Assembly (NCBI GenBank): GCA_964016885.1
Contig: OZ024744.1
Span: 8,804,001-8,868,000 of the forward strand
Source of the DNA: Eledone cirrhosa
Lineage: Eukaryota
Length of the DNA: 64,000 nucleotides
Direction of reading: 5' to 3'
The notes beneath the pieces are model-generated. The model saw only the letters and a list, made by a program, of their open reading frames with translations. It made no database searches and had not been told where the DNA came from. The translations under genes and the position numbers were made by a program. This document shows, piece by piece, positions 1 to 64,000 of the stretch (position 1 is the first letter of the stretch; every line of letters begins with the position of its first letter).

Positions 1-541
1 GCTTCTGTCATCTTACCATCCCACTCCTACCGACTAGCCTCAGTGTCACGTGATTGATTCTTTAGAATCTACCATTTGACCAGTGACAGCGAGATGTTCA
101 GTGCATGGAATCCAGTCCCCGCTAGCTGTTCCATTTACCGAATTATTATTATTTTTATATGAGTCCCCAGTGTCCGCGCATTGCCTGGAGACTTAGCTGA
201 GAATAGACCTCCCTGATGACGCAATGAATTCTCAACAGTTTATTACGTAACTGTCTTTATCCCATTGCAGAAACTAATTAGTTGGAGTGAAAATTTTAGT
301 AAGTAAGTTAATTTTTAAAAAGTTTTTTTAATTTTCTTATTTTACGTCTTTTATATTATTGTTCTGCATCCTCCTGCATTGAACCACCTAGGTACTATGA
401 CATATCCTGTGTATTTGCTGACATTAGCGTACATCTGTGCGCATATGTTAGTAGATATACTATATTCTCTATATTTATCTCCAAATCACTTTGTCTAGCA
501 AACCTGCCAAAACCACTACTAAATTTTTGGTGTGTTAGTAG
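1..541 (+). repeat. Reference monomer (541 bp, arbitrary phase)
   Basis: First full period; the next copy starts at 542. About 202 of 541 bases are G+C by hand count. It contains AT-rich blocks at 141-160 and 290-360. Confidence 0.98.
209..287 (+). ncRNA. Type I hammerhead ribozyme-like motif (monomer 1 copy), predicted cleavage after U283
   Basis: CTCC (209-212) pairs with GGAG (284-287) as stem I. CTGATGA is at 213-219. GCAATG (221-226) pairs with CATTGC (263-268) as stem II, enclosing ACAGTT (235-240)/AACTGT (249-254). GAAA is at 270-273. A273-C274-T275 pair with A280-G281-T282 as stem III with loop AATT. The NUH triplet is GTT at 281-283. Deviations are the C220/A269 mismatch at positions 10.1/11.1 and GUU rather than GUC/GUA. 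Confidence 0.75.
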
Positions 542-3500
542 GCTTCTGTCATCTTACCATCCCACTCCTACCGACTAGCCTCATTGTCACGTGATTGATT
601 CTTTAGAATCTACCATTTGACCAGTGACAGCGAGATTTTCAGTGCATGGAATCCAGTCCCCGCTAGCTGTTCCATTTACCGAATTATTATTATTTTTATA
701 TGAGTCCCCAGTGTGCGCGCATTGGCTGGAGACTTAGCTGAGAATAGACCTCCCTGATGACGCAATGAATTCTCAACAGTTTATTACGTAACAGTCTTTA
801 TCCCATTGCAGAAACTAATTAGTTGGAGTGAAAATTTTAGTAAAAAGTTAATTTTAAAAAATTTTTTTTTAAATTTCTTATTTTACGTCTTTTATATTAT
901 TGTTCTGCATCCTCCTGCATTGAACCACCTAGGTACTATGACATAACCTGTGTATTTGCTGACATTAGCGTACATCTGTGCGCATATGTTAGTAGATATA
1001 CTAAATTCTCTATATTTATCTCCAAATCACTTTGTCGAGCAAACCTGCCAAAACCACTACTAAATTTTTGGTGTGTTAGTAGGCTTCTGTCATCTTACCA
1101 TCCCACTCCTACCGACTAGCCTCATTGTCACGTGATTGATTCTTTAGAATCTACCATTTGACCAGTGACAGCGAGATTTTGAGTGCATGGAATCCAGTCC
1201 CCGCTAGCTGTTCCATTTACCGAATTATTATTATTTTTATATGAGTCCCCAGTGTCCGCGCATTGCCTGGAGACTTAGCTGAGAATAGACCTCCCTGATG
1301 ACGCAATGAATTCTCAACAGTTTATTACGTAACTGTCTTTATCCCATTGCAGAAACTAATTAGTTGGAGTGAACATTTTAGTAAGTAAGTTAATTTTTAA
1401 AAAATTTTTTAAATCTTCTTATTTTACGTCTTTTATATTATTGTTCTGCATCCTCCTGCATTGAACCACCTAGGTACTATGACATAACCTGTGTATTTGC
1501 TGACATTAGCGTACATCTGTGCGCATATGTTAGTAGATATACTAAATTCTCTATATTTATCTCCAAATCACTTTGTCGAGTAAACCTGCCAAAACCACTA
1601 CTAAATTTTTGGTGTGTTAGTAGGCTTCTGTCATCTTACCATCCCACTCCTACCGACTAGCCTCAGTGTCACGTGATTGATTTTTTAGAATCTACCATTT
1701 GACCAGTGACAGCGAGATTTTCAGTGCATGGAATCCAGTCCCCGCTAGCTGTTCCATTTACCGAATTATTATTATTTTTATATGAGTCCCCAGTGTCCGC
1801 GCATTGCCTGGAGACTTAGCTGAGAATAGACCTCCCTGATGACGCAATGAATTCTCAACAGTTTATTACGTAACTGTCTTTATCCCATTGCAGAAACTAA
1901 TTAGTTGGAGTGAAAATTTTAGTAAGTAAGTTAATTTTTAAAAAGTTTTTTTAATTTTCTTATTTTACGTCTTTTATATTATTGTTCTGCATCCTCCTGC
2001 ATTGAACCACCAAGGTACTATGACATAACCTGTGTATTTGCTGACATCAGCGTACATCTGTGCGCATATGTTAGTAGATATACGAAATTCTCTATATTTA
2101 TCTCCAAATCACTTTGTCGAGCAAACCTGCCAAAACCAGTACTAAATTTTTGGTGTGTTAGTAGGCTTCTGTCATCTTACCATCCCACTCCTACCGACTA
2201 GCCTCAGTGTCACGTGATTGATTCTTTAGAATCTACCATTTGACCAGTGACAGCGAGATGTTCAGTGCATGGAATCCAGTCCCCGCTAGCTGTTCCATTT
2301 ACCGAATTATTATTATTTTTATATGAGTCCCCAGTGTCCGCGCATTGCCTGGAGACTTAGCTGAGAATAGACCTACTGATGACGCAATGAATTCTCAACA
2401 GTTTATTACGTAACTGTCTTTATCCCATTGCAGAAACTAATTAGTTGCAGTGAAAATTTTAGTAAGTTAATTTTTTAAAAATTTTTTAAAATTTTCTTAT
2501 TTTACGTCTTTTATATTATTGTTCTGCATCCTCCTGCATTGAACCACCTAGGTACTATGACATATCCTGTGTATTTGCTGACATTAGCGTCCATCTGTGC
2601 GCATATGTTAGTAGATATACTAAATTCTCTATATTTATCTCCAAATCACTTTGTCGAGCAAACCTGCCAAAACCACTACTAAATTTTTGGTGTGTTAGTA
2701 GGCTTCTGTCATCTTACCATCCCACTCCTACCGACTAGCCTGAGTGTCACGTGATTGATTCTTTAGAATCTACCATTTGACCAGTGACAGCGAGATTTTC
2801 AGTGCATGGAATCCAGTCCCCGCTAGCTGTTCCATTTACCGAATTATTATTATTTTTATATGAGTCCCCAGTGTCCGCGCATTGCTTGGAGACTTAGCTG
2901 AGAATAGACCTCCCTGATGACGCAATGAATTCTCAACAGTTTATTACGTAACTGTCTTTATCCCATTGCAGAAACTAATTAGTTGGAGTGAACATTTTAG
3001 TAAGTTAATTTTTAAAAAATTTTTTTAAATCTTCTTATTTTACGTCTTTTATATTATTGTTCTGCATCCTCCTGCATTGAACCACCTAGGTACTATGACA
3101 TAACCTGTGTATTTGCTGACATTAGCGTACATCTGTGCGCATATGTTAGTAGATATACTAAATTCTCTATATATATCTCCAAATCACTTTGTCGAGCAAA
3201 CCTGCCAAAACCACTACTAAATTTTTGGTGTGTTAGTAGGCTTCTGTCATCTTACCATCCCACTCCTACCGACTAGCCTCATTGTCACGTGATTGATTCT
3301 TTAGAATCTACCATTTGACCAGTGACAGCGAGATTTTCAGTGCATGGAATCCAGTCCCCGCTAGCTGTTCCATTTACCGAATTATTATTATTTTTATATG
3401 AGTCCCCAGTGTCCGCGCATTGCCTGGAGACTTAGCTGAGAATAGACCTCCCTGATGGCGCAATGAATTCTCAACAGTTTATTAAGTAACTGTCTTTATC

Positions 3501-20100: not shown

Positions 20101-20526
20101 TCCCCGCTAGCTGTTCTATTTACCGAATTATTATTATTTTTATATGAGTCCCCAGTGTCCGCGCATTGCCTGGAGACTTAGCTGAGAATAGACCTCCCTG
20201 ATGACGCAATGAATTCTCAACAGTTTATTACGTAACTGTCTTTATCCCATTGCAGAAACTAATTAGTTGGAGTGAAAATTTTAGTAAGTAAGTTAATTTT
20301 TAAAAAGTTTTTTTAATTTTCTTATTTTACGTCTTTTATATTATTGTTCTGCATCCTACTGCATTGAACCACCTAGGTACTATGACATAACCTGTGTATT
20401 TGCTGACATTAGCGTACATCTGTGCGCATATGTTAGTAGATATACTAAATTCTCTATATTTATATCCAAATCACTTTGTCGAGCAAACCTGCCAAAACCA
20501 CTACTAAATTTTTGGTGTGTTAGTAG

Positions 20527-27239: not shown

Positions 27240-30200
27240 ACAGTTTATTACGTAACTGTCTTTATCCCATTGCAGAAACTAATTAGTTGGAGTGAAAATT
27301 TTAGTAAGTAAGTTAATTTTTAAAAAGTTTTTTTAATTTTCTTATTTTACGTCTTTTATATTATTGTTCTGCATCCTCCTGCATTGAACCACCTAGGTAC
27401 TATGACATAACCTGTGTATTTGCTGACATCAGCGTACATCTGTGCGCATATGTTAGTAGATATACGAAATTCTCTATATTTATCTCCAAATCACTTTGTC
27501 TAGCAAACCTTCCAAAACCACTACTAAATTTTTGGTGTGTTAGTAGGCTTCTGTCATCTTACCATCCCACTCCTGCCGACTAGCCTCATTGTCACGTGAT
27601 TGATTCTTTAGAATCTACCATTTGACCAGTGACAGCGAGATTTTCAGTGCATGGAATCCAGTCCCCGCTAGCTGTTCCATTTACCGAATTATTATTATTT
27701 TTATATGAGTCCCCAGTGTCCGCGCATTGCCTGGAGACTTAGCTGAGAATAGACCTCCCTGATGACGCAATGAATTCTCAACAGTTTATTAAGTAACTGT
27801 CTTTATCCCATTGCAGAAACTAATTAGTTGGAGTGAAAATTTTAGTAAAAAGTTAATTTTTTTAAATTTTTTTTTAATTTTCTTATTTTACATCTTTTAT
27901 ATTATTGTTCTGCATCCTCCTGCATTGAACCACCTAGGTACTATGACATAACCTGTGTATTTGCTGACATTAGCGTCCATCTGTGCGCATATGTTAGTAG
28001 ATATACTAAATTCTCTATATTTATATCCAAATCACTTTGTCGAGCAAACCTGCCAAAACCAGTACTAAATTTTTGGTGTGTTAGTAGGCTTCTGTCATCT
28101 TACCATCCCACTCCTACCGACTAGCCTCAGTGTCACGTGATTGATTCTTTAGAATCTACCATTTGACCAGTGACAGCGAGATTTTCAGTGCATGGAATCC
28201 AGTCCCCGCTAGCTGTTCCGTTTACCGAATTATTATTATTTTTATATGAGTCCCCAGTGTCCGCGCATTGCCTGGAGACTTAGCTGAGCATAGACCTCCC
28301 TGATGACGCAATGAATTCTCAACAGTTTATTAAGTAACTGTCTTTATCCCATTGCAGAAACTAATTAGTTGCAGTGAAAATTTTAGTAAGATAATTTTTT
28401 AAAAATTTTTTAAAATTTTCTTATTTTACGTCTTTTATATTATTGTTCTGCATCCTCCTGCATTGAACCACCTAGGTACTATGACATAACCTGTGTATTT
28501 GCTGACATTAGCGTACATCTGTGCGCATATGTTAGTAGATATACTAAATTCTCTATATTTATCTCCAAATCACTTTGTCTAGCAAACCTTCCAAAACCAC
28601 TACTAAATTTTTGGTGTGTTAGTAGGCTTCTGTCATCTTACCATCCCACTCCTGCCGACTAGCCTCATTGTCACGTGATTGATTCTTTAGAATCTACCAT
28701 TTGACCAGTGACAGCGAGATTTTCAGTGCATGGAATCCAGTCCCCGCTAGCTGTTCCATTTACCGAATTATTATTATTTTTATATGAGTCCCCAGTGTCC
28801 GCGCATTGCCTGGAGACTTAGCTGAGAATAGACCTCCCTGATGACGCAATGAATTCTCAACAGTTTATTAAGTATCTGTCTTTATCCCATTGCAGAAACT
28901 AATTAGTTGGAGTGAACATTTTAGTAAGTAAGTTAATTTTTAAAAAAATTTTTAAATCTTCTTATTTTACGTCTTTTATATTATTGTTCTGCATCCTCCT
29001 GCATTGAACCACCTAGGTACTATGACATAACCTGTGTATTTGCAGACATTAGCGTACATCTGTGCGCATATGTTAGTAGATATACTAAATTCTCTATATT
29101 TATCTCCAAATCACTTTGTCGAGTAAACCTGCCAAAACCACTACTAAATTTTTGGTGTGTTAGTAGGCTTCTGTCATCTTACCATCCCACTCCTACCGAC
29201 TAGCCTCAGTGTCACGTGATTGATTTTTTAGAATCTACCATTTGACCAGTGACAGCGAGATTTTCAGTGCATGGAATCCAGTCCCCGCTAGCTGTTCCAT
29301 TTACCGAATTATTATTATTTTTATATGAGTCCCCAGTGTCCGCGCATTGCCTGGAGACTTAGCTGAGAATAGACCTCCCTGATGACGCAATGAATTCTCA
29401 ACAGTTTATTACGTAACTGTCTTTATCCCATTGCAGAAACTAATTAGTTGCAGTGAAAATTTTAGTAAGTTAATTTTTAAAAAATTTTTTAAAATTTTCT
29501 TATTTTACGTCTTTTATATTATTGTTCTGCATCCTCCTGCATTGAACCACCTAGGTACTATGACATATCCTGTGTATTTGCTGACATTAGCGTCCATCTG
29601 TGCGCATATGTTAGTAGATATACTAAATTCTCTATATTTATCTCCAAATCACTTTGTCGAGCAAACCTACCAAAACCACTACTAAATTTTTGGTGTGTTA
29701 GTAGGCTTCTGTCATCTTACCATCCCACTCCTACCGACTAGCCTGAGTGTCACGTGATTGATTCTTTAGAATCTACCATTTGACCAGTGACAGCGAGATT
29801 TTCAGTGCATGGAATCCAGTCCCCGCTAGCTGTTCCATTTACCGAATTATTATTATTTTTATATGAGTCCCCAGTGTCCGCGCATTGCCTGGAGACTTAG
29901 CTGAGAATAGACCTCCCTGATGACGCAATGAATTCTCAACAGTTTATTACGTAACTGTCTTTATCCCATTGCAGAAACTAATTAGTTGGAGTCAACATTT
30001 TAGTAAGTAAGTTAATTTTTAAAAAATTTTTTAAATCTTCTTATTTTACGTCTTTTATATTATTGTTCTGCATCCTCCTGCATTGAACCACCTAGGTACT
30101 ATGACATAACCTGTGTATTTGCTGACATTAGCGTACATCTGTGCGCATATGTTAGTAGATATACTAAATTCTCTATATTTATCTCCAAATCACTTTGTCG

Positions 30201-33200
30201 AGTAAACCTGCCAAAACCACTACTAAATTTTTGGTGTGTTAGTAGGCTTCTGTCATCTTACCATCCCACTCCTACCGACTAGCCTCAGTGTCACGTGATT
30301 GATTTTTTAGAATCTACCATTTGACCAGTGACAGCGAGATTTTCAGTGCATGGAATCCAGTCCCCGCTAGCTGTTCCATTTACCGAATTATTATTATTTT
30401 TATATGAGTCCCCAGTGTCCGCGCATTGCCTGGAGACTTAGCTGAGAATAGACCTCCCTGATGACGCAATGAATTCTCAACAGTTTATTACGTAACTGTC
30501 TTTATCCCATTGCAGAAACTAATTAGTTGGAGTGAAAATTTTAGTAAGTAAGTTAATTTTTAAAAAGTTTTTTTAACTTTCTTATTTTACGTCTTTTATA
30601 TTATTGTTCTGCATCCTCCTGCATTGAACCACCTAGGTACTATGACATAGCCTGTGTATTTGCTGACATCAGCGTACATCTGTGCGCATATGTTAGTAGA
30701 TATACGAAATTCTCTATATTTATCTCCAAATCACTTTGTCGAGCAAACCTGCCAAAACCAGTACTAAATTTTTGGTGTGTTAGTAGGCTTCTGTCATCTT
30801 ACCATCCCACTCCTACCGACTAGCCTCAGTGTCACGTGATTGATTCTTTAGAATCTACCATTTGACCAGTGACAGCGAGATTTTCAGTGCATGGAATCCA
30901 GTCCCCGCTAGCTGTTCCATTTACCGAATTATTATTATTTTTATATGAGTCCCCAGTGTCCGCGCATTGCCTAGAGACTTAGCTGAGAATAGACCTCCCT
31001 GATGACGCAATGAATTCTCAATAGTTTATTAAGTAACTGTCTTTATCCCATTGCAGAAACTAATTAGTTGGAGTGAAAATTTTATTAAAAAGTTAATTTT
31101 TAAAATTTTTATTAAATTTTCTTCTTTTACGTCTTTTATATTATTGTTCTGCATCCTCCTGCATTGAACCACCTAGGTACTATGACATAACGTGTGTATT
31201 TGCTGACATTAGCGTACATCTGTGCGCATATGTTAGTAGATATACTAAATTCTCTATATTTATCTCCAAATCACTTTGTCGAGTAAACCTGCCAAAACCA
31301 CTACTAAATTTTTGGTGTGTTAGTAGGCTTCTGTCATCTTACCATCCCACTCCTACCGACTAGCCTCAGTGTCACGTGATTGATTTTTTAGAATCTACCA
31401 TTTGACCAGTGACAGCGAGATTTTCAGTGCATGGAATCCAGTCCCCGCTAGCTGGTCCATTTACCGAATTATTATTATTTTTATATGAGTCCCCAGTGTC
31501 CGCGCATTGCCTGGAGACTTAGCTGAGAATAGACCTCCCTGATGACGCAATGAATTCTCAACAGTTTATTACGTAACTGTCTTTATCCCATTGCAGAAAC
31601 TAATTAGTTGGAGTGAAAATTTTAGTAAGTAAGTTAATTTTTAAAAAGTTTTTTTAATTTTCTTATTTTACGTCTTTTATATTATTGTTCTGCATCCTCC
31701 TGCATTGAACCACCTAGGTACTATGACATAACCTGTGTATTTGCTGACATCAGCGTACATCTGTGCGCATATGTTAGTAGATATACGAAATTCTCTATAT
31801 TTATCTCCAAATCACTTTGTCTAGCAAACCTTCCAAAACCACTACTAAATTTTTGGTGTGTTAGTAGGCTTCTGTCATCTTACCATCCCACTCCTGCCGA
31901 CTAGCCTCATTGTCACGTGATTGATTCTTTAGAATCTACCATTTGACCAGTGACAGCGAGATTTTCAGTGCATGGAATCCAGTCCCCGCTAGCTGTTCCA
32001 TTTACCGAATTATTATTATTTTTATATGAGTCCCCAGTGTCCGCGCATTGCCTGGAGACTTAGCTGAGAATAGACCTCCCTGATGACGCAATGAATTCTC
32101 AACAGTTTATTAAGTAACTGTCTTTATCCCATTGCAGAAACTAATTAGTTGGAGTGAAAATTTTAGTAAAAAGTTAATTTTTTTAAATTTTTTTTTAATT
32201 TTCTTATTTTACATCTTTTATATTATTGTTCTGCATCCTCCTGCATTGAACCACCTAGGTACTATGACATAACCTGTGTATTTGCTGACATTAGCGTCCA
32301 TCTGTGCGCATATGTTAGTAGATATACTAAATTCTCTATATTTATATCCAAATCACTTTGTCGAGCAAACCTGCCAAAACCAGTACTAAATTTTTGGTGT
32401 GTTAGTAGGCTTCTGTCATCTTACCATCCCACTCCTACCGACTAGCCTCAGTGTCACGTGATTGATTCTTTAGAATCTACCATTTGACCAGTGACAGCGA
32501 GATTTTCAGTGCATGGAATCCAGTCCCCGCTAGCTGTTCCGTTTACCGAATTATTATTATTTTTATATGAGTCCCCAGTGTCCGCGCATTGCCTGGAGAC
32601 TTAGCTGAGCATAGACCTCCCTGATGACGCAATGAATTCTCAACAGTTTATTAAGTAACTGTCTTTATCCCATTGCAGAAACTAATTAGTTGCAGTGAAA
32701 ATTTTAGTAAGATAATTTTTTAAAAATTTTTTAAAATTTTCTTATTTTACGTCTTTTATATTATTGTTCTGCATCCTCCTGCATTGAACCACCTAGGTAC
32801 TATGACATAACCTGTGTATTTGCTGACATTAGCGTACATCTGTGCGCATATGTTAGTAGATATACTAAATTCTCTATATTTATCTCCAAATCACTTTGTC
32901 TAGCAAACCTTCCAAAACCACTACTAAATTTTTGGTGTGTTAGTAGGCTTCTGTCATCTTACCATCCCACTCCTGCCGACTAGCCTCATTGTCACGTGAT
33001 TGATTCTTTAGAATCTACCATTTGACCAGTGACAGCGAGATTTTCAGTGCATGGAATCCAGTCCCCGCTAGCTGTTCCATTTACCGAATTATTATTATTT
33101 TTATATGAGTCCCCAGTGTCCGCGCATTGCCTGGAGACTTAGCTGAGAATAGACCTCCCTGATGACGCAATGAATTCTCAACAGTTTATTAAGTATCTGT

Positions 33201-35900
33201 CTTTATCCCATTGCAGAAACTAATTAGTTGGAGTGAACATTTTAGTAAGTAAGTTAATTTTTAAAAAAATTTTTAAATCTTCTTATTTTACGTCTTTTAT
33301 ATTATTGTTCTGCATCCTCCTGCATTGAACCACCTAGGTACTATGACATAACCTGTGTATTTGCAGACATTAGCGTACATCTGTGCGCATATGTTAGTAG
33401 ATATACTAAATTCTCTATATTTATCTCCAAATCACTTTGTCGAGTAAACCTGCCAAAACCACTACTAAATTTTTGGTGTGTTAGTAGGCTTCTGTCATCT
33501 TACCATCCCACTCCTACCGACTAGCCTCAGTGTCACGTGATTGATTTTTTAGAATCTACCATTTGACCAGTGACAGCGAGATTTTCAGTGCATGGAATCC
33601 AGTCCCCGCTAGCTGTTCCATTTACCGAATTATTATTATTTTTATATGAGTCCCCAGTGTCCGCGCATTGCCTGGAGACTTAGCTGAGAATAGACCTCCC
33701 TGATGACGCAATGAATTCTCAACAGTTTATTACGTAACTGTCTTTATCCCATTGCAGAAACTAATTAGTTGCAGTGAAAATTTTAGTAAGTTAATTTTTA
33801 AAAAATTTTTTAAAATTTTCTTATTTTACGTCTTTTATATTATTGTTCTGCATCCTCCTGCATTGAACCACCTAGGTACTATGACATATCCTGTGTATTT
33901 GCTGACATTAGCGTCCATCTGTGCGCATATGTTAGTAGATATACTAAATTCTCTATATTTATCTCCAAATCACTTTGTCGAGCAAACCTACCAAAACCAC
34001 TACTAAATTTTTGGTGTGTTAGTAGGCTTCTGTCATCTTACCATCCCACTCCTACCGACTAGCCTGAGTGTCACGTGATTGATTCTTTAGAATCTACCAT
34101 TTGACCAGTGACAGCGAGATTTTCAGTGCATGGAATCCAGTCCCCGCTAGCTGTTCCATTTACCGAATTATTATTATTTTTATATGAGTCCCCAGTGTCC
34201 GCGCATTGCCTGGAGACTTAGCTGAGAATAGACCTCCCTGATGACGCAATGAATTCTCAACAGTTTATTACGTAACTGTCTTTATCCCATTGCAGAAACT
34301 AATTAGTTGGAGTCAACATTTTAGTAAGTAAGTTAATTTTTAAAAAATTTTTTAAATCTTCTTATTTTACGTCTTTTATATTATTGTTCTGCATCCTCCT
34401 GCATTGAACCACCTAGGTACTATGACATAACCTGTGTATTTGCTGACATTAGCGTACATCTGTGCGCATATGTTAGTAGATATACTAAATTCTCTATATT
34501 TATCTCCAAATCACTTTGTCGAGTAAACCTGCCAAAACCACTACTAAATTTTTGGTGTGTTAGTAGGCTTCTGTCATCTTACCATCCCACTCCTACCGAC
34601 TAGCCTCAGTGTCACGTGATTGATTTTTTAGAATCTACCATTTGACCAGTGACAGCGAGATTTTCAGTGCATGGAATCCAGTCCCCGCTAGCTGTTCCAT
34701 TTACCGAATTATTATTATTTTTATATGAGTCCCCAGTGTCCGCGCATTGCCTGGAGACTTAGCTGAGAATAGACCTCCCTGATGACGCAATGAATTCTCA
34801 ACAGTTTATTACGTAACTGTCTTTATCCCATTGCAGAAACTAATTAGTTGGAGTGAAAATTTTAGTAAGTAAGTTAATTTTTAAAAAGTTTTTTTAACTT
34901 TCTTATTTTACGTCTTTTATATTATTGTTCTGCATCCTCCTGCATTGAACCACCTAGGTACTATGACATAGCCTGTGTATTTGCTGACATCAGCGTACAT
35001 CTGTGCGCATATGTTAGTAGATATACGAAATTCTCTATATTTATCTCCAAATCACTTTGTCGAGCAAACCTGCCAAAACCAGTACTAAATTTTTGGTGTG
35101 TTAGTAGGCTTCTGTCATCTTACCATCCCACTCCTACCGACTAGCCTCAGTGTCACGTGATTGATTCTTTAGAATCTACCATTTGACCAGTGACAGCGAG
35201 ATTTTCAGTGCATGGAATCCAGTCCCCGCTAGCTGTTCCATTTACCGAATTATTATTATTTTTATATGAGTCCCCAGTGTCCGCGCATTGCCTAGAGACT
35301 TAGCTGAGAATAGACCTCCCTGATGACGCAATGAATTCTCAATAGTTTATTAAGTAACTGTCTTTATCCCATTGCAGAAACTAATTAGTTGGAGTGAAAA
35401 TTTTATTAAAAAGTTAATTTTTAAAATTTTTATTAAATTTTCTTCTTTTACGTCTTTTATATTATTGTTCTGCATCCTCCTGCATTGAACCACCTAGGTA
35501 CTATGACATAGCGTGTGTATTTGCTGACATTAGCGTACATCTGTGCGCATATGTTAGTAGATATACTAAATTCTCTATATTTATCTCCAAATCACTTTGT
35601 CGAGTAAACCTGCCAAAACCACTACTAAATTTTTGGTGTGTTAGTAGGCTTCTGTCATCTTACCATCCCACTCCTACCGACTAGCCTCAGTGTCACGTGA
35701 TTGATTTTTTAGAATCTACCATTTGACCAGTGACAGCGAGATTTTCAGTGCATGGAATCCAGTCCCCGCTAGCTGGTCCATTTACCGAATTATTATTATT
35801 TTTATATGAGTCCCCAGTGTCCGCGCATTGCCTGGAGACTTAGCTGAGAATAGACCTCCCTGATGACGCAATGAATTCTCAACAGTTTATTACGTAACTG
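27240..35900 (+). repeat. Recent tandem duplication of an 8-monomer block (period 4321 bp); boundaries approximate
   Basis: Rare variants recur at +4321: acatctttt at 27892/32213, gctggtcc at 31455/35776, and the ORF variant QTYQ at 29431/33752. The markers gataattt, agtatct, gcagac, gtcaac and taacttt recur likewise. Confidence 0.9.
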
Positions 35901-49400: not shown

Positions 49401-52400
49401 CGTAACTGTCTTTATCCCATTGCAGAAACTAATTAGTTGGAGTGAAAATTTTAGTAAGTAAGTTAATTTTTAAAAAGTTTTTTTAATTTTCTTATTTTAC
49501 GTCTTTTATATTATTGTTCTGCATCCTCCTGCATTGAACCACCTAGGTACTATGACATAACCTGTGTATTTGCTGACATCAGCGTACATCTGTGCGCATA
49601 TGTTAGTAGATATACGAAATTCTCTATATTTATCTCCAAATCACTTTGTCGAGCAAACCTGCCAAAACCAGTACTAAATTTTTGGTGTGTTAGTAGGCTT
49701 CTGTCATCTTACCATCCCACTCCTACCGACTAGCCTCAGTGTCACGTGATTGATTCTTTAGAATCTACCATTTGACCAGTGACAGCGAGATTTTCAGTGC
49801 ATGGAATCCAGTCCCCGCTAGCTGTTCCATTTACCGAATTATTATTATTTTTATATGAGTCCCCAGTGTCCGCGCATTGCCTAGAGACTTAGCTGAGAAT
49901 AGACCTCCCTGATGACGCAATGAATTCTCAATAGTTTATTAAGTAACTGTCTTTATCCCATTGCAGAAACTAATTAGTTGGAGTGAAAATTTTATTAAAA
50001 AGTTAATTTTTAAAATTTTTATTAAATTTTCTTCTTTTACGTCTTTTATATTATTGTTCTGCATCCTCCTGCATTGAACCACCTAGGTACTATGACATAA
50101 CGTGTGTATTTGCTGACATTAGCGTACATCTGTGCGCATATGTTAGTAGATATACTAAATTCTCTATATTTATCTCCAAATCACTTTGTCGAGTAAACCT
50201 GCCAAAACCACTACTAAATTTTTGGTGTGTTAGTAGGCTTCTGTCATCTTACCATCCCACTCCTACCGACTAGCCTCAGTGTCACGTGATTGATTTTTTA
50301 GAATCTACCATTTGACCAGTGACAGCGAGATTTTCAGTGCATGGAATCCAGTCCCCGCTAGCTGTTCCATTTACCGAATTATTATTATTTTTATATGAGT
50401 CCCCAGTGTCCGCGCATTGCCTGGAGACTTAGCTGAGAATAGACCTCCCTGATGACGCAATGAATTCTTAACAGTTTATTACGTAACTGTCTTTATCCCA
50501 TTGCAGAAACTAATTAGTTGGAGTGAAAATTTTAGTAAGTAAGTTAATTTTTAAAAAGTTTTTTTAATTTTCTTATTTTACGTCTTTTATATTATTGTTC
50601 TGCATCCTCCTGCATTGAACCACCTAGGTACTATGACATATCCTGTGTATTTGCTGACATTAGCGTCCATCTGTGCGCATATGTTAGTAGATATACGAAA
50701 TTCTCTATATTTATCTCCAAATCACTTTGTCGAGCAAACCTGCCAAAACCAGTACTAAATTTTTGGTGTGTTAGTAGGCTTCTGTCATCTTACCATCCCA
50801 CTCCTACCGACTAGCCTCAGTGTCACGTGATTGATTCTTTAGAATCTAGCATTTGACCAGTGACAGCGAGATTTTCAGTGCATGGAATCCAGTCCCCGCT
50901 AGCTGTTCCATTTACCGAATTATTATTATTTTTATATGAGTCCCCAGTGTCCGCGCATTGCCTAGAGACTTAGCTGAGAATAGACCTCCCTGATGACGCA
51001 ATGAATTCTCAATAGTTTATTAAGTAACTGTCTTTATCCCATTGCAGAAACTAATTAGTTGGAGTGAAAATTTTATTAAAAAGTTAATTTTTAAAATTTT
51101 TATTAAATTTTCTTCTTTTACGTCTTTTATATTATTGTTCTGCATCCTCCTGCATTGAACCACCTAGGTACTATGACATAACGTGTGTATTTGCTGACAT
51201 TAGCGTACATCTGTGCGCATATGTTAGTAGATATACTAAATTCTCTATATTTATCTCCAAATCACTTTGTCGAGTAAACCTGCCAAAACCACTACTAAAT
51301 TTTTGGTGTGTTAGTAGGCTTCTGTCATCTTACCATCCCACTCCTACCGACTAGCCTCAGTGTCACGTGATTGATTTTTTAGAATCTACCATTTGACCAG
51401 TGACAGCGAGATTTTCAGTGCATGGAATCCAGTCCCCGCTAGCTGTTCCATTTACCGAATTATTATTATTTTTATATGAGTCCCCAGTGTCCGCGCATTG
51501 CCTGGAGACTTAGCTGAGAATAGACCTCCCTGATGACGCAATGAATTCTCAACAGTTTATTACGTAACTGTCTTTATCCCATTGCAGAAACTAATTAGTT
51601 GGAGTGAAAATTTTAGTAAGTAAGTTAATTTTTAAAAAGTTTTTTTAATTTTCTTATTTTACGTCTTTTATATTATTGTTCTGCATCCTCCTGCATTGAA
51701 CCACCTAGGTACTATGACATAACCTGTGTATTTGCTGACATCAGCGTACATCTGTGCGCATATGTTAGTAGATATACGAAATTCTCTATATTTATCTCCA
51801 AATCACTTTGTCGAGCAAACCTGCCAAAACCAGTACTAAATTTTTGGTGTGTTAGTAGGCTTCTGTCATCTTACCATCCCACTCCTACCGACTAGCCTCA
51901 GTGTCACGTGATTGATTCTTTAGAATCTACCATTTGACCAGTGACAGCGAGATTTTCAGTGCATGGAATCCAGTCCCCGCTAGCTGTTCCATTTACCGAA
52001 TTATTATTATTTTTATATGAGTCCCCAGTGTCCGCGCATTGCCTAGAGACTTAGCTGAGAATAGACCTCCCTGATGACGCAATGAATTCTCAATAGTTTA
52101 TTAAGTAACTGTCTTTATCCCATTGCAGAAACTAATTAGTTGGAGTGAAAATTTTATTAAAAAGTTAATTTTTAAAATTTTTATTAAATTTTCTTCTTTT
52201 ACGTCTTTTATATTATTGTTCTGCATCCTCCTGCATTGAACCACCTAGGTACTATGACATAACGTGTGTATTTGCTGACATTAGCGTACATCTGTGCGCA
52301 TATGTTAGTAGATATACTAAATTCTCTATATTTATCTCCAAATCACTTTGTCGAGTAAACCTGCCAAAACCACTACTAAATTTTTGGTGTGTTAGTAGGC

Positions 52401-52700
52401 TTCTGTCATCTTACCATCCCACTCCTACCGACTAGCCTCAGTGTCACGTGATTGATTTTTTAGAATCTACCATTTGACCAGTGACAGCGAGATTTTCAGT
52501 TCATGGAATCCAGTCCCCGCTAGCTGTTCCATTTACCGAATTATTATTATTTTTATATGAGTCCCCAGTGTCCGCGCATTGCCTGGAGACTTAGCTGAGA
52601 ATAGACCTCCCTGATGACGCAATGAATTCTTAACAGTTTATTACGTAACTGTCTTTATCCCATTGCAGAAACTAATTAGTTGGAGTGAAAATTTTAGTAA
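46453..52700 (+). repeat. Second dimeric (A-B)n run, with one A-A interruption near 47534-48615
   Basis: Same alternation and same B/E hybrid markers as 37268-41900. Confidence 0.8.
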
Positions 52701-55700
52701 GTAAGTTAATTTTTAAAAAGTTTTTTTAATTTTCTTATTTTACGTCTTTTATATTATTGTTCTGCATCCTCCTGCATTGAACCACCTAGGTACTATGACA
52801 TATCCTGTGTATTTGCTGACATTAGCGTCCATCTGTGCGCATATGTTAGTAGATATACTAAATTCTCTATATTTATCTCCAAATCACTTTGTCGAGCAAA
52901 CCTGCCAAAACCACTACTAAATTTTTGGTGTGTTAGTAGGCTTCTGTCATCTTACCATCCCACTCCTACCGACTAGCCTGAGTGTCACGTGATTCATTCT
53001 TTAGAATCTACCATTTGACCAGTGACAGCGAGATTTTCAGTGCATGGAATCCGGTCCCCGCTAGCTGTTCCATTTACCGAATTATTATTATTTTTATATG
53101 AGTCCCCAGTGTCCGCGCATTGCCTAGAGACTTAGCTGAGAATAGACCTCCCTGATGACGCAATGAATTCTCAATAGTTTATTAAGTAACTGTCTTTATC
53201 CCATTGCAGAAACTAATTAGTTGGAGTGAAAATTTTATTAAAAAGTTAATTTTTAAAATTTTTTTTAAATTTTCTTCTTTTACGTCTTTTATATTATTGT
53301 TCTGCATCCTCCTGCATTGAACCACCTAGGTACTATGACATATCCTGTGTATTTGCTGACATTAGCGTCCATCTGTGCGCATATGTTAGTAGATATACTA
53401 AATTCTCTATATTTATCTCCAAATCACTTTGTCGAGCAAACCTGCCAAAACCACTACTAAATTTTTGGTGTGTTAGTAGGCTTCTGTCATCTTACCATCC
53501 CACTCCTGCCGACTAGCCTCATTGTCACGTGATTGATTCTTTAGAATCTACCATTTGACCAGTGACAGCGAGATTTTCAGTGCATGGAATCCAGTCCCCG
53601 CTAGCTGTTCCATTTACCGAATTATTATTATTTTTATATGAGTCCCCAGTGTCCGCGCATTGCCTGGAGACTTAGCTGAGAATAGACCTCCCTGATGACG
53701 CAATGAATTCTCAACAGTTTATTAAATAACTGTCTTTATCCCATTGCAGAAACTAATTAGTTGGAGTGAAAATTTTAGTAAAAAGTTAATTCTTTTTAAT
53801 TTTTTTTTAATTTTCTTATTTTACGTCTTTTATATTATTGTTCTGCATCCTCCTGCATTGAACCACCTAGGTACTATGACATAACCTGTGTATTTGCTGA
53901 CATTAGCGTACATCTGTGCGCATATGTTAGTAGATATACTAAATTCTCTATATTTATATCCAAATCACTTTGTCGAGCAAACCTGCCAAAACCACTACTA
54001 AATTTTTGGTGTGTTAGTAGGCTTCTGTCATCTTACCATCCCACTCCTACCGACTAGCCTCAGTGTCACGTGATTGATTCTTTAGAATCTACCATTTGAC
54101 CAGTGACAGCGAGATTTTCAGTGCATGGAATCCAGTCCCCGCTAGCTGTTCCGTTTACCGAATTATTATTATTTTTATATTGAGTCCCCAGTGTCCGCGC
54201 ATTGCCTGGAGACTTAGCTGAGCATAGACCTCCCTGATGACGCAATGAATTCTCAACAGTTTATTAAGTAACTGTCTTTATCCCATTGCAGAAACTAATT
54301 AGTTGCAGTGAAAATTTTAGTAAGTTAATTTTTTAAAATTTTTTTAAAATTTTCTTATTTTACGTCTTTTATATTATTGTTCTGCATCCTCCTGCATTGA
54401 ACCACCTAGGTACTATGACATATCCTGTGTATTTGCTGACATTAGCGTCCATCTGTGCGCATATGTTAGTAGATATACTAAATTCTCTATATTTATCTCC
54501 AAATCACTTTGTCGAGTAAACCTGCCAAAACCACTACTAAATTTTTGGTGTGTTAGTAGGCTTCTGTCATCTTACCATCCCACTCCTACCGACTAGCCTC
54601 AGTGTCACGTGATTGATTTTTTAGAATCTACCATTTGACCAGTGACAGCGAGATTTTCAGTGCATGGAATCCAGTCCCCGCTAGCTGTTCCATTTACCGA
54701 ATTATTATTATTTTTATATGAGTCCCCAGTGTCCGCGCATTGCCTGGAGACTTAGCTGAGAATAGACCTCCCTGATGACGCAATGAATTCTCAACAGTTT
54801 ATTACGTAACTGTCTTTATCCCATTGCAGAAACTAATTAGTTGGAGTGAAAATTTTAGTAAGTAAGTTAATTTTTAAAAAGTTTTTTTAATTTTCTTATT
54901 TTACGTCTTTTATATTATTGTTCTGCATCCTCCTGCATTGAACCACCTAGGTACTATGACATAACCTGTGTATTTGCTGACATCAGCGTACATCTGTGCG
55001 CATATGTTAGTAGATATACGAAATTCTCTATATTTATCTCCAAATCACTTTGTCGAGCAAACCTGCCAAAACCAGTACTAAATTTTTGGTGTGTTAGTAG
55101 GCTTCTGTCATCTTACCATCCCACTCCTACCGACTAGCCTCAGTGTCACGTGATTGATTCTTTAGAATCTACCATTTGACCAGTGACAGCGAGATTTTCA
55201 GTGCATGGAATCCAGTCCCCGCTAGCTGTTCCATTTACCGAATTATTATTATTTTTATATGAGTCCCCAGTGTCCGCGCATTGCCTAGAGACTTAGCTGA
55301 GAATAGACCTCCCTGATGACGCAATGAATTCTCAATAGTTTATTAAGTAACTGTCTTTATCCCATTGCAGAAACTAATTAGTTGGAGTGAAAATTTTATT
55401 AAAAAGTTAATTTTTAAAATTTTTATTAAATTTTCTTCTTTTACGTCTTTTATATTATTGTTCTGCATCCTCCTGCATTGAACCACCTAGGTACTATGAC
55501 ATAACGTGTGTATTTGCTGACATTAGCGTACATCTGTGCGCATATGTTAGTAGATATACTAAATTCTCTATATTTATCTCCAAATCACTTTGTCGAGTAA
55601 ACCTGCCAAAACCACTACTAAATTTTTGGTGTGTTAGTAGGCTTCTGTCATCTTACCATCCCACTCCTACCGACTAGCCTCAGTGTCACGTGATTGATTT

Positions 55701-57750
55701 TTTAGAATCTACCATTTGACCAGTGACAGCGAGATTTTCAGTTCATGGAATCCAGTCCCCGCTAGCTGTTCCATTTACCGAATTATTATTATTTTTATAT
55801 GAGTCCCCAGTGTCCGCGCATTGCCTGGAGACTTAGCTGAGAATAGACCTCCCTGATGACGCAATGAATTCTTAACAGTTTATTACGTAACTGTCTTTAT
55901 CCCATTGCAGAAACTAATTAGTTGGAGTGAAAATTTTAGTAAGTAAGTTAATTTTTAAAAAGTTTTTTTAATTTTCTTATTTTACGTCTTTTATATTATT
56001 GTTCTGCATCCTCCTGCATTGAACCACCTAGGTACTATGACATATCCTGTGTATTTGCTGACATTAGCGTCCATCTGTGCGCATATGTTAGTAGATATAC
56101 TAAATTCTCTATATTTATCTCCAAATCACTTTGTCGAGCAAACCTGCCAAAACCACTACTAAATTTTTGGTGTGTTAGTAGGCTTCTGTCATCTTACCAT
56201 CCCACTCCTACCGACTAGCCTGAGTGTCACGTGATTCATTCTTTAGAATCTACCATTTGACCAGTGACAGCGAGATTTTCAGTGCATGGAATCCGGTCCC
56301 CGCTAGCTGTTCCATTTACCGAATTATTATTATTTTTATATGAGTCCCCAGTGTCCGCGCATTGCCTAGAGACTTAGCTGAGAATAGACCTCCCTGATGA
56401 CGCAATGAATTCTCAATAGTTTATTAAGTAACTGTCTTTATCCCATTGCAGAAACTAATTAGTTGGAGTGAAAATTTTATTAAAAAGTTAATTTTTAAAA
56501 TTTTTTTTAAATTTTCTTCTTTTACGTCTTTTATATTATTGTTCTGCATCCTCCTGCATTGAACCACCTAGGTACTATGACATATCCTGTGTATTTGCTG
56601 ACATTAGCGTCCATCTGTGCGCATATGTTAGTAGATATACTAAATTCTCTATATTTATCTCCAAATCACTTTGTCGAGCAAACCTGCCAAAACCACTACT
56701 AAATTTTTGGTGTGTTAGTAGGCTTCTGTCATCTTACCATCCCACTCCTGCCGACTAGCCTCATTGTCACGTGATTGATTCTTTAGAATCTACCATTTGA
56801 CCAGTGACAGCGAGATTTTCAGTGCATGGAATCCAGTCCCCGCTAGCTGTTCCATTTACCGAATTATTATTATTTTTATATGAGTCCCCAGTGTCCGCGC
56901 ATTGCCTGGAGACTTAGCTGAGAATAGACCTCCCTGATGACGCAATGAATTCTCAACAGTTTATTAAATAACTGTCTTTATCCCATTGCAGAAACTAATT
57001 AGTTGGAGTGAAAATTTTAGTAAAAAGTTAATTCTTTTTAATTTTTTTTTAATTTTCTTATTTTACGTCTTTTATATTATTGTTCTGCATCCTCCTGCAT
57101 TGAACCACCTAGGTACTATGACATAACCTGTGTATTTGCTGACATTAGCGTACATCTGTGCGCATATGTTAGTAGATATACTAAATTCTCTATATTTATC
57201 TCCAAATCACTTTGTCGAGCAAACCTGCCAAAACCACTACTAAATTTTTGGTGTGTTAGTAGGCTTCTGTCATCTTACCATCCCACTCCTACCGACTAGC
57301 CTCAGTGTCACGTGATTGATTCTTTAGAATCTACCATTTGACCAGTGACAGCGAGATTTTCAGTGCATGGAATCCAGTCCCCGCTAGCTGTTCCGTTTAC
57401 CGAATTATTATTATTTTTATATTGAGTCCCCAGTGTCCGCGCATTGCCTGGAGACTTAGCTGAGCATAGACCTCCCTGATGACGCAATGAATTCTCAACA
57501 GTTTATTAAGTAACTGTCTTTATCCCATTGCAGAAACTAATTAGTTGCAGTGAAAATTTTAGTAAGTTAATTTTTTAAAATTTTTTTAAAATTTTCTTAT
57601 TTTACGTCTTTTATATTATTGTTCTGCATCCTCCTGCATTGAACCACCTAGGTACTATGACATATCCTGTGTATTTGCTGACATTAGCGTCCATCTGTGC
57701 GCATATGTTAGTAGATATACTAAATTCTCTATATTTATCTCCAAATCACT
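51318..57750 (+). repeat. Recent tandem duplication of a 6-monomer block (period 3242 bp); boundaries approximate
   Basis: gttcatgg occurs at 52501/55743. gattcatt, taaataac, aattcttttt and the tatattgag 1-bp insertion each occur twice, about 3242 bp apart. Confidence 0.9.
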
Positions 57751-59424
57751 TTGTCGAGCAAACCTGCCAAAACCACTACTAAATTTTTGGTGTGTTAGTA
57801 GGCTTCTGTCATCTTACCATCCCACTCCTACCGACTAGCCTGAGTGTCACGTGATTGATTCTTTAGAATCTACCATTTGACCAGTGACAGCGAGATTTTC
57901 AGTGCATGGAATCCAGTCCCCGCTAGCTGTTCCATTTACCGAATTATTATTATTTTTATATGAGTCCCCAGTGTCCGCGCATTGCCTGGAGACTTAGCTG
58001 AGAATAGACCTCCCTGATGACGCAATGAATTCTCAACAGTTTATTACGTAACTGTCTTTATCCCATTGCAGAAACTAATTAGTTGGAGTGAACATTTTAG
58101 TAAGTAAGTTAATTTTTAAAAAAATTTTTAAATCTTCTTATTTTACGTCTTTTATATTATTGTTCTGCATCCTCCTGCATTCAACCACCTAGGTACTATG
58201 ACATAACCTGTGTATTTGCTGACATTAGCGTACATCTGTGCGCATATGTTAGTAGATATACTAAATTCTCTATATTTATCTCCAAATCACTTTGTCGAGT
58301 AAACCTGCCAAAACCACTACTAAATTTTTGGTGTGTTAGTAGGCTTCTGTCATCTTACCATCCCACTCCTACCGACTAGCCTCAGTGTCACGTGATTGAT
58401 TTTTTAGAATCTACCATTTGACCAGTGACAGCGAGATTTTCAGTGCATGGAATCCAGTCCCCGCTAGCTGTTCCATTTACCGAATTATTATTATTTTTAT
58501 ATGAGTCCCCAGTGTCCGCGCATTGCCTGGAGACTTAGCTGAGAATAGACCTCCCTGATGACGCAATGAATTCTCAACAGTTTATTACGTAACTGTCTTT
58601 ATCCCATTGCAGAAACTAATTAGTTGGAGTGAAAATTTTAGTAAGTAAGTTAATTTTTAAAAAGTTTTTTTAATTTTCTTATTTTACGTCTTTTATATTA
58701 TTGTTCTGCATCCTCCTGCATTGAACCACCTAGGTACTATGACATAACCTGTGTATTTGCTGACATCAGCGTACATCTGTGCGCATATGTTAGTAGATAT
58801 ACGAAATTCTCTATATTTATCTCCAAATCACTTTGTCGAGCAAGCCTGCCAAAACCAGTACTAAATTTTTGGTGTGTTAGTAGGCTTCTGTCATCTTACC
58901 ATCCCACTCCTACCGACTAGCCTCAGTGTCACGTGATTGATTCTTTAGAATCTACCATTTGACCAGTGACAGCGAGATTTTCAGTGCATGGAATCCAGTC
59001 CCCGCTAGCTGTTCCATTTACCGAATTATTATTATTTTTATATGAGTCCCCAGTGTCCGCGCATTGCCTGGAGACTTAGCTGAGAATAGACCTCCCTGGT
59101 GACGCAATGAATTCTCAACAGTTTATTACGTAACTGTCTTTATCCCATTGCAGAAACTAATTAGTTGGAGTGAACATTTTAGTAAGTAAGTTAATTTTTA
59201 AAAAAATTTTTAAATCTTCTTATTTTACGTCTTTTATATTATTGTTCTGCATCCTCCTGCATTGAACCACCTAGGTACTATGACATAACCTGTGTATTTG
59301 CTGACATTAGCGTACATCTGTGCGCATATGTTAGTAGATATACTAAATTCTCTATATTTATCTCCAAATCACTTTGTCGAGTAAACCTGCCAAAACCACT
59401 ACTAAATTTTTGGTGTGTTAGTAG

Positions 59425-62400: not shown

Positions 62401-63750
62401 ACTAATTAGTTGGAGTGAAAATTTTATTAAAAAGTTAATTTTTAAAATTTTTTTTTAATTTTCTTCTTTTACGTCTTTTATATTATTGTTCTGCATCCTC
62501 CTGCATTGAACCACCTAGGTACTATGACATAACGTGTGTATTTGCTGACATTAGCGTACATCTGTGCGCATATGTTAGTAGATATACTAAATTATCTATA
62601 TTTATCTCCAAATCACTTTGTCTAGCAAACCTTCCAAAACCACTACTAAATTTTTGGTGTGTTAGTAGGCTTCTGTCATCTTACCATCCCACTCCTGCCG
62701 ACTAGCCTCATTGTCACGTGATTGATTCTTTAGAATCTACCATTTGACCAGTGACAGCGAGATTTTCAGTGCATGGAATCCAGTCCCCGCTAGCTGTTCC
62801 ATTTACCGAATTATTATTATTTTTATATGAGTCCCCAGTGTCCGCGCATTGCCTGGAGACTTAGCTGAGAATAGACCTCCCTGATGACGCAATGAATTCT
62901 CAACAGTTTATTAAGTAACTGTCTTTATCCCATTGCAGAAACTAATTAGTTGGAGTGAACATTTTAGTAAGTAAGTTAATTTTTAAAAAAATTTTTAAAT
63001 CTTCTTATTTTACGTCTTTTATATTATTGTTCTGCATCCTCCTGCATTCAACCACCTAGGTACTATGACATAACCTGTGTATTTGCTGACATTAGCGTAC
63101 ATCTGTGCGCATATGTTAGTAGATATACTAAATTCTCTATATTTATCTCCAAATCACTTTGTCGAGTAAACCTGCCACAACCACTACTAAATTTTTGGTG
63201 TGTTAGTAGGCTTCTGTCATCTTACCATCCCACTCCTACCGACTAGCCTCAGTGTCACGTGATTGATTTTTTAGAATCTACCATTTGACCAGTGACAGCG
63301 AGATTTTCAGTGCATGGAATCCAGTCCCCGCTAGCTGTTCCATTTACCGAATTATTATTATTTTTATATGAGTCCCCAGTGTCCGCGCATTGCCTGGAGA
63401 CTTAGCTGAGAATAGACCTCCCTGATGAGGCAATGAATTCTCAACAGTTTATTACGTAACTGTCTTTATCCCATTGCAGAAACTAATTAGTTGGAGTGAA
63501 AATTTTAGTAAGTAAGTTAATTTTTAAAAAGTTTTTTTAATTTTCTTATTTTACGTCTTTTATATTATTGTTCTGCATCCTCCTGCATTGAACCACCTAG
63601 GTACTATGACATATCCTGTGTATTTGCTGACATTAGCGTCCATCTGTGCGCATATGTTAGTAGATATACTAAATTCTCTATATTTATCTCCAAATCACTT
63701 TGTCGAGCAAACCTGCCAAAACCACTACTAAATTTTTGGTGTGTTAGTAG
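59425..63750 (+). repeat. Tandem duplication of a 4-monomer block A-B-E-A/D (period 2163 bp)
   Basis: ccccaatg occurs at 59594/61757. taacttt, acgtgtg with tctagc, cattcaa and the A/D hybrid unit recur at the same spacing. Confidence 0.82.
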
Positions 63751-64000
63751 GCTTCTGTCATCTTACCATCCCACTCCTACCGACTAGCCTGAGTGTCACG
63801 TGATTGATTCTTTAGAATCTACCATTTGACCAGTGACAGCGAGATTTTCAGTGCATGGAATCCAGTCCCCGCTAGCTGTTCCATTTACCGAATTATTATT
63901 ATTTTTATATGAGTCCCCAGTGTCCGCGCATTGCCTGGAGACTTAGCTGAGAATAGACCTCCCTGGTGACGCAATGAATTCTCAACAGTTTATTACGTAA

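Follow-up and report, generated by a model that had tools for sequence, protein, structure and literature searches.

The window analysed here, a 64,000-bp stretch of Eledone cirrhosa DNA, lies entirely within a tandem array whose unit was proposed in an initial annotation to be a ribozyme-bearing retrozyme or Penelope-related sequence domesticated as a major satellite. This raises the question of how a mobile ribozyme repeat comes to form a long, pure array, and whether such an array serves the host.

Extent and internal order of the array

The array and the block duplications named below are as follows.

1..64000, + strand: interior part of a tandem array of a 541-bp monomer, with 118 full monomers and 1 partial monomer here
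27547..35647, + strand: block duplication, monomers 52-58 against 60-66 (lag 8)
51318..57801, + strand: block duplication, monomers 96-101 against 102-107 (lag 6)

All 64,000 bases are tiled by the 118 full monomers and one 250-bp partial monomer, all on the + strand and with no gap, insert or N, which agrees with the earlier count of about 118 highly similar copies without interspersed elements. The mean pairwise identity in the window is 97.1%, and 56 pairs of monomers are identical. The array, previously put at 64 kb or more, extends past the window to 199,556 bp (G000:C28:8,782,639-8,982,194, about 8.8 Mb into a 136-Mb contig) and comprises 368 full monomers without N at 96.4% pairwise identity. 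Tandem Repeats Finder does not detect the array in the window because its period limit is 500.

The layered higher-order repeats reported earlier are present, but as irregular block duplications. The window contains 16 diagonal runs of at least three near-identical monomers, where shuffling the monomer order 200 times gives 0.19 on average and never more than 2. The lags are irregular (2-30), the lag profile of the window monomers has no single dominant period, and the fixed n-mer period of centromeric higher-order repeats is absent. Across the whole array, 22 duplicated blocks of 4-13 monomers each are found (0 in 20 shuffles), and variants common to tens of monomers form nested sets.

The monomer and its predicted hammerhead

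Positions prefixed with q refer to the reference monomer, which has the following features.

1..541, + strand: reference monomer, origin of q positions, no coding role found
209..287, + strand: predicted type I hammerhead, from fold and covariation across sister subfamilies
209-212/284-287, + strand: stem I, predicted
213-219 and 270-273, + strand: hammerhead core, predicted
220, + strand: extra C before stem II of the predicted hammerhead
221-226/263-268, + strand: stem II, predicted
269, + strand: extra A after stem II of the predicted hammerhead
273-282, + strand: palindromic helix III, predicted
283..284, + strand: predicted cleavage site after a GUU triplet, from hammerhead numbering applied to the predicted fold

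A protein-coding unit was rejected, since the longest stop-to-stop frames are only about 90 aa and an 88-aa frame has no Pfam match; the monomer likewise lacks the open reading frame with reverse transcriptase (RT) and GIY-YIG domains that defines an autonomous Penelope-like element. Instead, each unit is predicted to carry a self-cutting type I hammerhead fold, as the term ribozyme-bearing unit had implied; an Rfam search of window positions 1-6000 gave 0 matches at E<=1. The canonical core, three circularly permuted stems and an NUH site are present in a variant form, with an extra C and an extra A flanking stem II. The atypical points are the U at the cleavage site and the extra A preceding the GAAA core. 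As in retrozymes, every tandem non-coding unit has the predicted type I hammerhead, the core being intact in 337 of the 368 monomers.

In 22 representatives, stems I and II are 100% paired, three pairs are changed on both sides, and one stem position shows all four Watson-Crick pairs. The covariation score of 0.195 was reached by none of 500 shuffles; of the five measures compared with the shuffles, both-side pair changes (499/500) and further pair types (480/500) do not beat them. The columns of helix III were preset by the search pattern. Because stems I and II covary, the ordinary type I order is fixed, and a scrambled (type-SGC) hammerhead was rejected, the core strands not being in non-circular order. 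The constrained hammerhead fold lies 2.5 kcal/mol above the MFE, and the isolated hammerhead region folds no better than shuffles (z -1.43). The unit circle, taken from cut to cut, has a predicted fold z of -4.8 against 25 shuffles, and the helix III palindrome is predicted to dimerise at -9.0. Subfamily-level variants are weakly depleted in the hammerhead's unselected 5' half (1/17 versus 81/380).

The dispersed family and its insertions

The array unit belongs to a dispersed family with at least 11,740 motif matches genome-wide, 4,316 of them exact to one 26-mer and 7,424 to a mutually exclusive sister pattern; reversed-pattern controls gave 0 matches for both motifs. The dispersed copies occupy (AT)n tracts, and their 3' ends fall at two fixed points, which we call start sites A and B.

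349..356, + strand: start site A, where dispersed copies have the first of their fixed 3' ends, next to (AT)n; single-stranded in the predicted fold
470..478, + strand: start site B, the second fixed 3' end joined to (AT)n, and the end of the array
357..478, + strand: 122-nt tail between both fixed 3' ends, with a long predicted hairpin inside

From 58 loci on C1, 36 two-orientation insertions were grouped automatically; 31 of them have one end at A and one at B, none has like ends, and 5 have one non-standard end. The single-orientation copies of the C1 loci end at A (17), at B (16) or elsewhere (4), and in a further 27 loci, counted manually, all 14 inverted insertions obey the one-A-one-B rule. 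This pairing of unlike ends is the footprint of a Penelope-like tail: excerpts of the literature give a tail on one side only, inverted 5' copies and (TA)n as target for Penelope-like elements (PMC8557442), and describe the tail as the stretch between two RT start sites (PMC11167929). The family also shows the 5' truncation and microsatellite target of Penelope mobilisation, and it is dispersed, multi-copy and apparently without LTR-type structure, as retrozymes are. The evidence supports a retrozyme-type, Penelope-mobilised hammerhead repeat, and to this extent the proposed retrozyme or Penelope-related origin is borne out by a dispersed non-coding repeat with Penelope-like insertion anatomy.

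A search for dispersed copies adjoining a Penelope-like RT/GIY-YIG frame had been suggested earlier. Penelope-like frames do occur near dispersed copies (Naiad-like ones in L026 and L027, others in L035, L040 and L041), but most of them are independent insertions into shared (AT)n-rich places. An autonomous partner was not found: neither 30 loci of one Penelope-like family nor the surroundings of the other Penelope-like frames seen in the retrieved loci show pLTR homology to the monomer. Only the frame in L041 is directly joined to a family copy, and that junction fits a template switch or a nested insertion alike. In an autonomous GIY-YIG family of the E. cirrhosa genome, 3' ends at (AT)n likewise occur at two points, about 44 nt from each other.

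Outside the long arrays, the dispersed insertions seen have at most about 4 monomers per arm. Three further family arrays of 30-89 kb, each from a different subfamily, expanded independently, so that satellite birth from an insertion has been repeated at least four times within one family. The four long arrays total about 357 kb, or 0.012% of the assembly, a count of those found so far (at least four) in a non-exhaustive search for arrays of other subfamilies.

Origin and growth of the array

The array starts with an inverted q152-356, followed by q455-541 and then the 368 monomers; its last piece stops at q478, and (AT)n flanks both sides. The first piece is thus inverted, 5'-truncated and ends at site A, and the far end is site B. 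Because these ends show the anatomy of a dispersed copy, we conclude that one insertion expanded in place: the array, which belongs to a known class, the retrozymes, is read here as a single non-LTR retrozyme insertion that was likely written into (AT)n by a Penelope-like RT and likely grew in place to about 370 copies (probability roughly 0.8). Basically, it is a clean and readable satellite birth, from one retro-insertion with both ends intact to 200 kb.

The insertion would begin with a Penelope-like endonuclease nicking both strands of the (AT)n target. The two nicks would prime at the two fixed RNA sites, one nick each, and both cDNAs would join head to head. Copying would run beyond unit length, for which the simplest template would be a unit-length circle, cleaved and ligated by dimeric hammerheads. 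Once inserted, the array likely grew by unequal exchange, and it evolved as neutral DNA, with block duplications and hammerhead decay.

Alternatively, the array may have been written near full length by one rolling-circle reverse transcription and diversified later, which we consider improbable. Both insertion ends are intact and the base of the array tree is star-like, as this alternative would have it, and the inverted arm of the C2 array exceeds 5 monomers, so that long founding cDNAs do occur. However, the nested variants and the 22 duplicated blocks require DNA-level duplication, and the short arms of the dispersed insertions also speak against it. That the length is an assembly artefact is the least probable of the alternatives considered in this study; the array is known from assembled sequence alone, but there is no N in 254 kb, adjacent monomers differ by a median of 18 changes, variants are region-specific, and both junctions are biologically precise.

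A likely daughter insertion on another chromosome

A homogeneous insertion of four copies on C12 carries the alleles A273T (4/4 copies covering the site), C220A (3/4) and T478A (3/3). These alleles segregate in the array in a nested way, and none of 13 other close relatives has them. Its haplotype differs from array unit a340|a341 by 1 change when the unit boundary is placed between q273 and q478, and by 3 in the standard register. In a tree with 36 array units, 8 of them picked for T478A, the insertion is nested among the array sequences with support of 96/73, in a clade supported at 91/89; its direct node carries no star. Because it nests within the array phylogeny and matches one junction-spanning unit, the array likely seeded at least this one insertion, probably via a unit-length RNA, and so likely remained transcribable; indirectly, this would mean + strand transcription at least once. 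Note that the case consists of one insertion and three alleles, and that the boundary window spans 38% of the unit, so that the cut site falling inside it is weak evidence. A homogeneous source run on an unassembled haplotype, or one since lost, could also have given the C12 haplotype; a scan of the array for runs of 3 near-identical neighbours found none. The daughter's core is mutated (A15.1 to U). Two other candidate daughters, L138 and L139, were rejected, as their place is at the base of the array clade, where the tree has no resolution.

In the literature listings and excerpts covered, we found no report that derives a new insertion from one unit within a long retrozyme array. In the excerpts used, the spread of retrozymes from array transcript to unit circle to Penelope reverse transcriptase is so far a hypothesis; concrete substrates and predictions for testing it come from the C12 daughter and from the strict way in which both start sites are paired. 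A more speculative possibility, less likely than not, is that the array is a self-amplified master locus recording the whole retrozyme cycle: dimeric hammerheads would cut multimers into unit circles, an intact neighbour would free a unit with a dead core, the RNA would be A-to-I edited, and a Penelope RT pair would prime once per fixed site, run round the circle and seed insertions able to become satellites.

Domestication and centromere function

Under the domestication proposal, the array would be a (peri)centromeric satellite, and its self-cutting transcripts would serve the host. The length, purity and homogeneity of the array suit this proposal, as do the cores kept in most monomers and the other tandem repeats in 4 of 13 sparse 2-kb samples of C28 8.0-9.6 Mb; in excerpts of published work, the ends and centres of Xenopus chromosomes are enriched in retrozyme multimers (bioRxiv 10.64898/2026.07.22.740005), and primary constrictions of Lathyrus are sites of retroelement-derived array expansion (PMC7004042). 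However, an array-diagnostic 22-mer has 349 of its 363 genome-wide matches inside the array and reveals no sister array of the same lineage. The pattern of one large array per chromosome, for which a check had been suggested, is not seen: this lineage has a single locus, and among the four long family arrays found, two lie 167 Mb apart on C3. Moreover, the hammerhead mutates as fast as the rest of the monomer within the array (the 42 hammerhead positions have 34 variant alleles and the 462 other positions have 377, a ratio of 0.99), which shows no purifying selection and argues against domestication, and the fraction of fully intact monomers drops with array divergence (39/53, 47/69, 215/368, 19/69). 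A 176-bp repeat 31 kb from the array, considered as a centromere lead, was rejected because it is local, with only 8 exact matches, all within 8 kb. Domestication is thus very improbable, and the 0.012% share of the four long arrays found in the assembly does not support a major satellite; a long, pure ribozyme array need not imply centromere function.

Comparison with known systems

The comparisons below refer to excerpts of the cited papers. The view that metazoan retrozymes form only short clusters of smaller monomers is outdated, since published arrays have 300 and 180 units, and monomer lengths of 51-972 bp are on record (bioRxiv 10.64898/2026.07.22.740005). Metazoan non-LTR retrozymes resemble the array unit in being non-coding, low-GC tandem units with one type I hammerhead each (Cervera and de la Pena 2020, PMC7229834; Li, Clavereau and Pollet, bioRxiv 10.64898/2026.07.22.740005) and a palindromic helix III suiting dimer activity, and they resemble the family in having thousands of dispersed copies, coexisting Penelope-like elements and occasional arrays of hundreds. 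In contrast, the 368 units slightly exceed the survey maximum of 300 (bioRxiv 10.64898/2026.07.22.740005), the core is atypical, and these excerpts describe for them neither the strict one-A-one-B rule nor a daughter that goes back to a unit of an array. For Xenopus retrozyme dimers, 8 of 9 lacked in vitro cleavage (same preprint).

Penelope-like elements with an endonuclease share the 5' truncation and the head-to-head inverted piece (PMC8557442, PMC3846280, PMC11167929), as well as the one-sided tail between two RT start sites and (TA)n targets, whereas the family has no open reading frame and a tail of 122 nt instead of 30-40. The anole Penelope inserts without cleavage (PMC11167929); its start site is non-homologous to the target, unlike the two family start sites, which both end in AT-like, target-matching bases. 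Like the array form, the hammerheads of Penelope pLTRs (PMC4209133) combine a palindromic helix III with a short stem I and a long stem II, keep G10.1-C11.1 invariant and carry an additional base after position 9 and before 10.1. Beyond this, the array form has a GUU site and, ahead of G12, an additional A that is invariant, two features that the excerpts of that paper do not describe.

Hammerhead satellites (pDo500 of the cave cricket, PMC2808323; satellite 2 of newts and the schistosome repeats, as cited in PMC7229834) also have a monomer of about 500 bp with a hammerhead, and in pDo500, as in the array, this region shows no greater conservation than the remaining sequence (PMC2808323). What sets the array apart from these satellites is that both of its ends still show how it arose from one insertion.

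Extent and internal order of the array

Monomers of 541 bp, 118 of them full and one partial, fill the whole window on the + strand without inserts and with a mean pairwise identity of 97.1%, so the initial count of about 118 consecutive similar copies free of interspersed elements holds. With the neighbouring stretches the array comes to 199,556 bp and 368 full monomers (G000:C28:8,782,639-8,982,194) and contains no N; it lies on a contig of 136.5 Mb, in a genome of 3.0 Gb. The layered higher-order repeats proposed in the initial annotation are real, since near-identical runs of at least three monomers occur 16 times in the window at lags of 2-30 (shuffle mean 0.19); in the whole array, runs of at least four occur 22 times (0 in 20 shuffles). 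However, they are irregular block duplications with no fixed higher-order unit. Positions within the monomer (q; window 1..541, + strand) are as follows.

q209-287: predicted type I hammerhead, cut predicted after q283
q213-219 and q270-273: hammerhead cores
q273-282: palindromic helix III
q356: fixed 3' end A
about q478: fixed 3' end B
q357-478: 122-nt tail

Predicted hammerhead

Every monomer has both cores and a predicted GUU cut triplet. Stem II is 6 bp long, stem I is 4 bp long and is predicted to extend distally, and helix III is a palindrome of 10 nt. An Rfam search of window 1-6000 gave no match at E<=1. Stem II is altered in matched pairs between sister subfamilies. In 22 representatives, hand-chosen to span subfamilies, pairing in stems I and II is 100%; three pairs have both sides changed, and one stem position has all four Watson-Crick pairs. 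The covariation score and percentage paired exceed 500 of 500 shuffles and two count-type measures failed to beat all 500; helix III columns, being preset by the search pattern, are uninformative here. The array unit shares with Penelope pLTR hammerheads (PMC4209133) an extra base after the first core, a stem II whose basal pair is an invariant G-C, and a palindromic helix III; it departs in its extra A and in the U at the cut site. In published work, many comparable motifs show poor cleavage in vitro.

Each monomer also has one or two GTAAGT splice-donor-like motifs right after the hammerhead (window 299-308), kept across subfamilies, which also build the predicted distal stem I; introns are present in Penelope pLTRs. 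At window 45-62 of each monomer, CACGTG, a putative E-box (119 times in the window), lies beside a CCAAT-like box; the two may form an internal promoter.

Dispersed copies and insertion anatomy

Exact matches of a family 26-mer number 4,316 across the genome, including 273 within the array; a sister pattern, mutually exclusive with it, gives 7,424. In 58 loci (covering the first 100 matches listed, all on C1), copies are 5'-truncated, with 1-4 units per arm, (AT)n flanks and 3' ends at A or B. Automatically grouped two-orientation insertions pair one A with one B in 31 of 36 cases and like ends in none, the other five having one non-standard end; single-orientation copies end at A (17), B (16) or elsewhere (4). 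In 27 further loci, counted manually, the rule is kept in 14 of 14 inverted insertions. This anatomy is the footprint described for Penelope-like elements, which insert into microsatellites and leave an inverted 5' copy and a one-sided tail (PMC8557442; PMC3846280), the tail being the stretch between two RT start sites (PMC11167929).

By structure the array unit is a metazoan non-LTR retrozyme, and by insertion anatomy a Penelope-mobilised element. Young Penelope-like ORFs are numerous in the genome, and one such family also has two 3' ends at (AT)n. Among the Penelope-like ORFs seen, none has sequence in common with the monomer, and no partner is assigned.

The array as one insertion

At the left end of the array an inverted q152-356 piece is followed by q455-541 and the 368 monomers; the right end stops at q478, and (AT)n adjoins both ends. 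By these ends the array is a single insertion. An array-diagnostic 22-mer has 363 matches, 349 in the array, 11 among those listed on C1-C14 and at most three elsewhere; its lineage therefore has no sister array. Rare-variant patterns located three further arrays, each from a different subfamily in the tree.

Further arrays of the family
C2:312,577,955-312,666,754; 88.8 kb; interior partly sampled, left end truncated
C3:88,369,499-88,407,831; 38.3 kb; two-end anatomy as in the C28 array
C3:255,003,940-255,034,266; 30.3 kb; two-end anatomy as in the C28 array

Summed, the four arrays make up some 357 kb, or 0.012% of the assembly. They account for only part of the forward-strand excess of family matches (608), so more may exist.

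In each flank of the C28 array (8,782,550-8,782,620 and 8,982,220-8,982,450; loci L046, L056) lies a terminal piece of another (AT)n-targeting repeat, oriented towards the array; the right-hand one contains a different hammerhead-like core. The repeats beside the array and the dispersed copies, and the plentiful (AT)n, resemble those of octopus genomes. Other tandem repeats are present in the region, including, about 31 kb to the left, a local, diverged 176-bp repeat with internal inversions (L145:1-7416; its 23-mer has eight exact matches, all there).

Proposed domestication

The initial annotation suggested that the array could be a domesticated satellite. Its variant alleles number 34 at 42 hammerhead sites and 377 at 462 others (ratio 0.99, and 0.9-1.3 when frequency cut-offs are raised). 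The hammerhead is fully intact in 215 of 368 monomers and its core kept in 337; of the four arrays, the most diverged has the smallest intact fraction. These counts speak against that reading, and we see no sign of domestication in the sequence. Cricket pDo500 is alike, its hammerhead region having no extra conservation over the rest (PMC2808323).

A probable daughter insertion on C12

L134, on C12, is an independent insertion that consists of about four units and one inverted piece, with ends B and A and its own junction and flanks. It carries A273T (4/4 copies covering the site), C220A (3/4) and T478A (3/3), found in 0 of 13 other close relatives. In the right half of the array these alleles are nested: T478A occurs in 45 monomers; of the 13 C220A cases, 8 come after a monomer with T478A and none shares a monomer with it; and A273T is added to the pair at three junctions. 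Of 1,509 possible substitutions, only 95 are present in the array in five copies or more. The L134 haplotype differs by one change from the unit spanning monomers a340|a341, given a unit boundary in q273-q478, a range that includes the predicted cut, and by three from the best standard-register monomer. In a tree of cut-to-cut units (36 from the array, 8 selected for T478A), L134 is sister to the a340|a341 unit (96/73) inside an array subclade (91/89).

In this one case, an array unit was probably the source, and may have acted through a circle. Nowhere in the array are three neighbours near-identical, so a single unit copied repeatedly is the simplest template; a homogeneous source run since lost or unassembled is possible, as is conversion from C12 into the array. 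The core of L134 is mutated, so release would require an intact neighbour within a dimer, or would have to do without cleavage. Circle-templated insertion by Penelope-like RTs is a proposal in bioRxiv 10.64898/2026.07.22.740005 and PMC7229834. The former also describes retrozyme arrays with 300 and 180 units and monomer lengths of up to 972 bp, and retroelement-derived satellites are common in plants (PMC7004042 abstract). The additions here are a strict end-pairing rule, four independent expansions, neutral decay and a traceable daughter.

Variants private to one insertion and present in all its copies, taken as template-stage, include A>G in 4 of 9 and T>C in 0 of 9 (p 0.03; tiny sample); among post-insertion variants T>C (12) outnumbers A>G (4). 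In L134 (L134:4237-5322), two A>G changes also lie inside the predicted A/T hairpin. Together these patterns hint weakly that the RNA template underwent A-to-I editing.

Other Penelope-like elements

At L041:5685-8440 an inverted, 5'-truncated Penelope-like element (GIY-YIG, PF01541) joins a retrozyme copy directly at that copy's 5' end, with no (AT)n between them, by either template switch or nested insertion; its 3' region (~6060-5900) has paired boxes similar to those of the monomer. L027:152-2476 holds a 775-aa frame without a Pfam match, which we take to be Naiad-like; upstream, a small canonical type I hammerhead that belongs to another family is present in inverted copies (L027 ~3790-4000; L143). 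A very young GIY-YIG Penelope-like family has many identical copies with 784-aa open frames, and forms a tandem run at ~3.9 kb spacing (e.g. G000:C2:359,517,957-359,534,021 among the matches listed).
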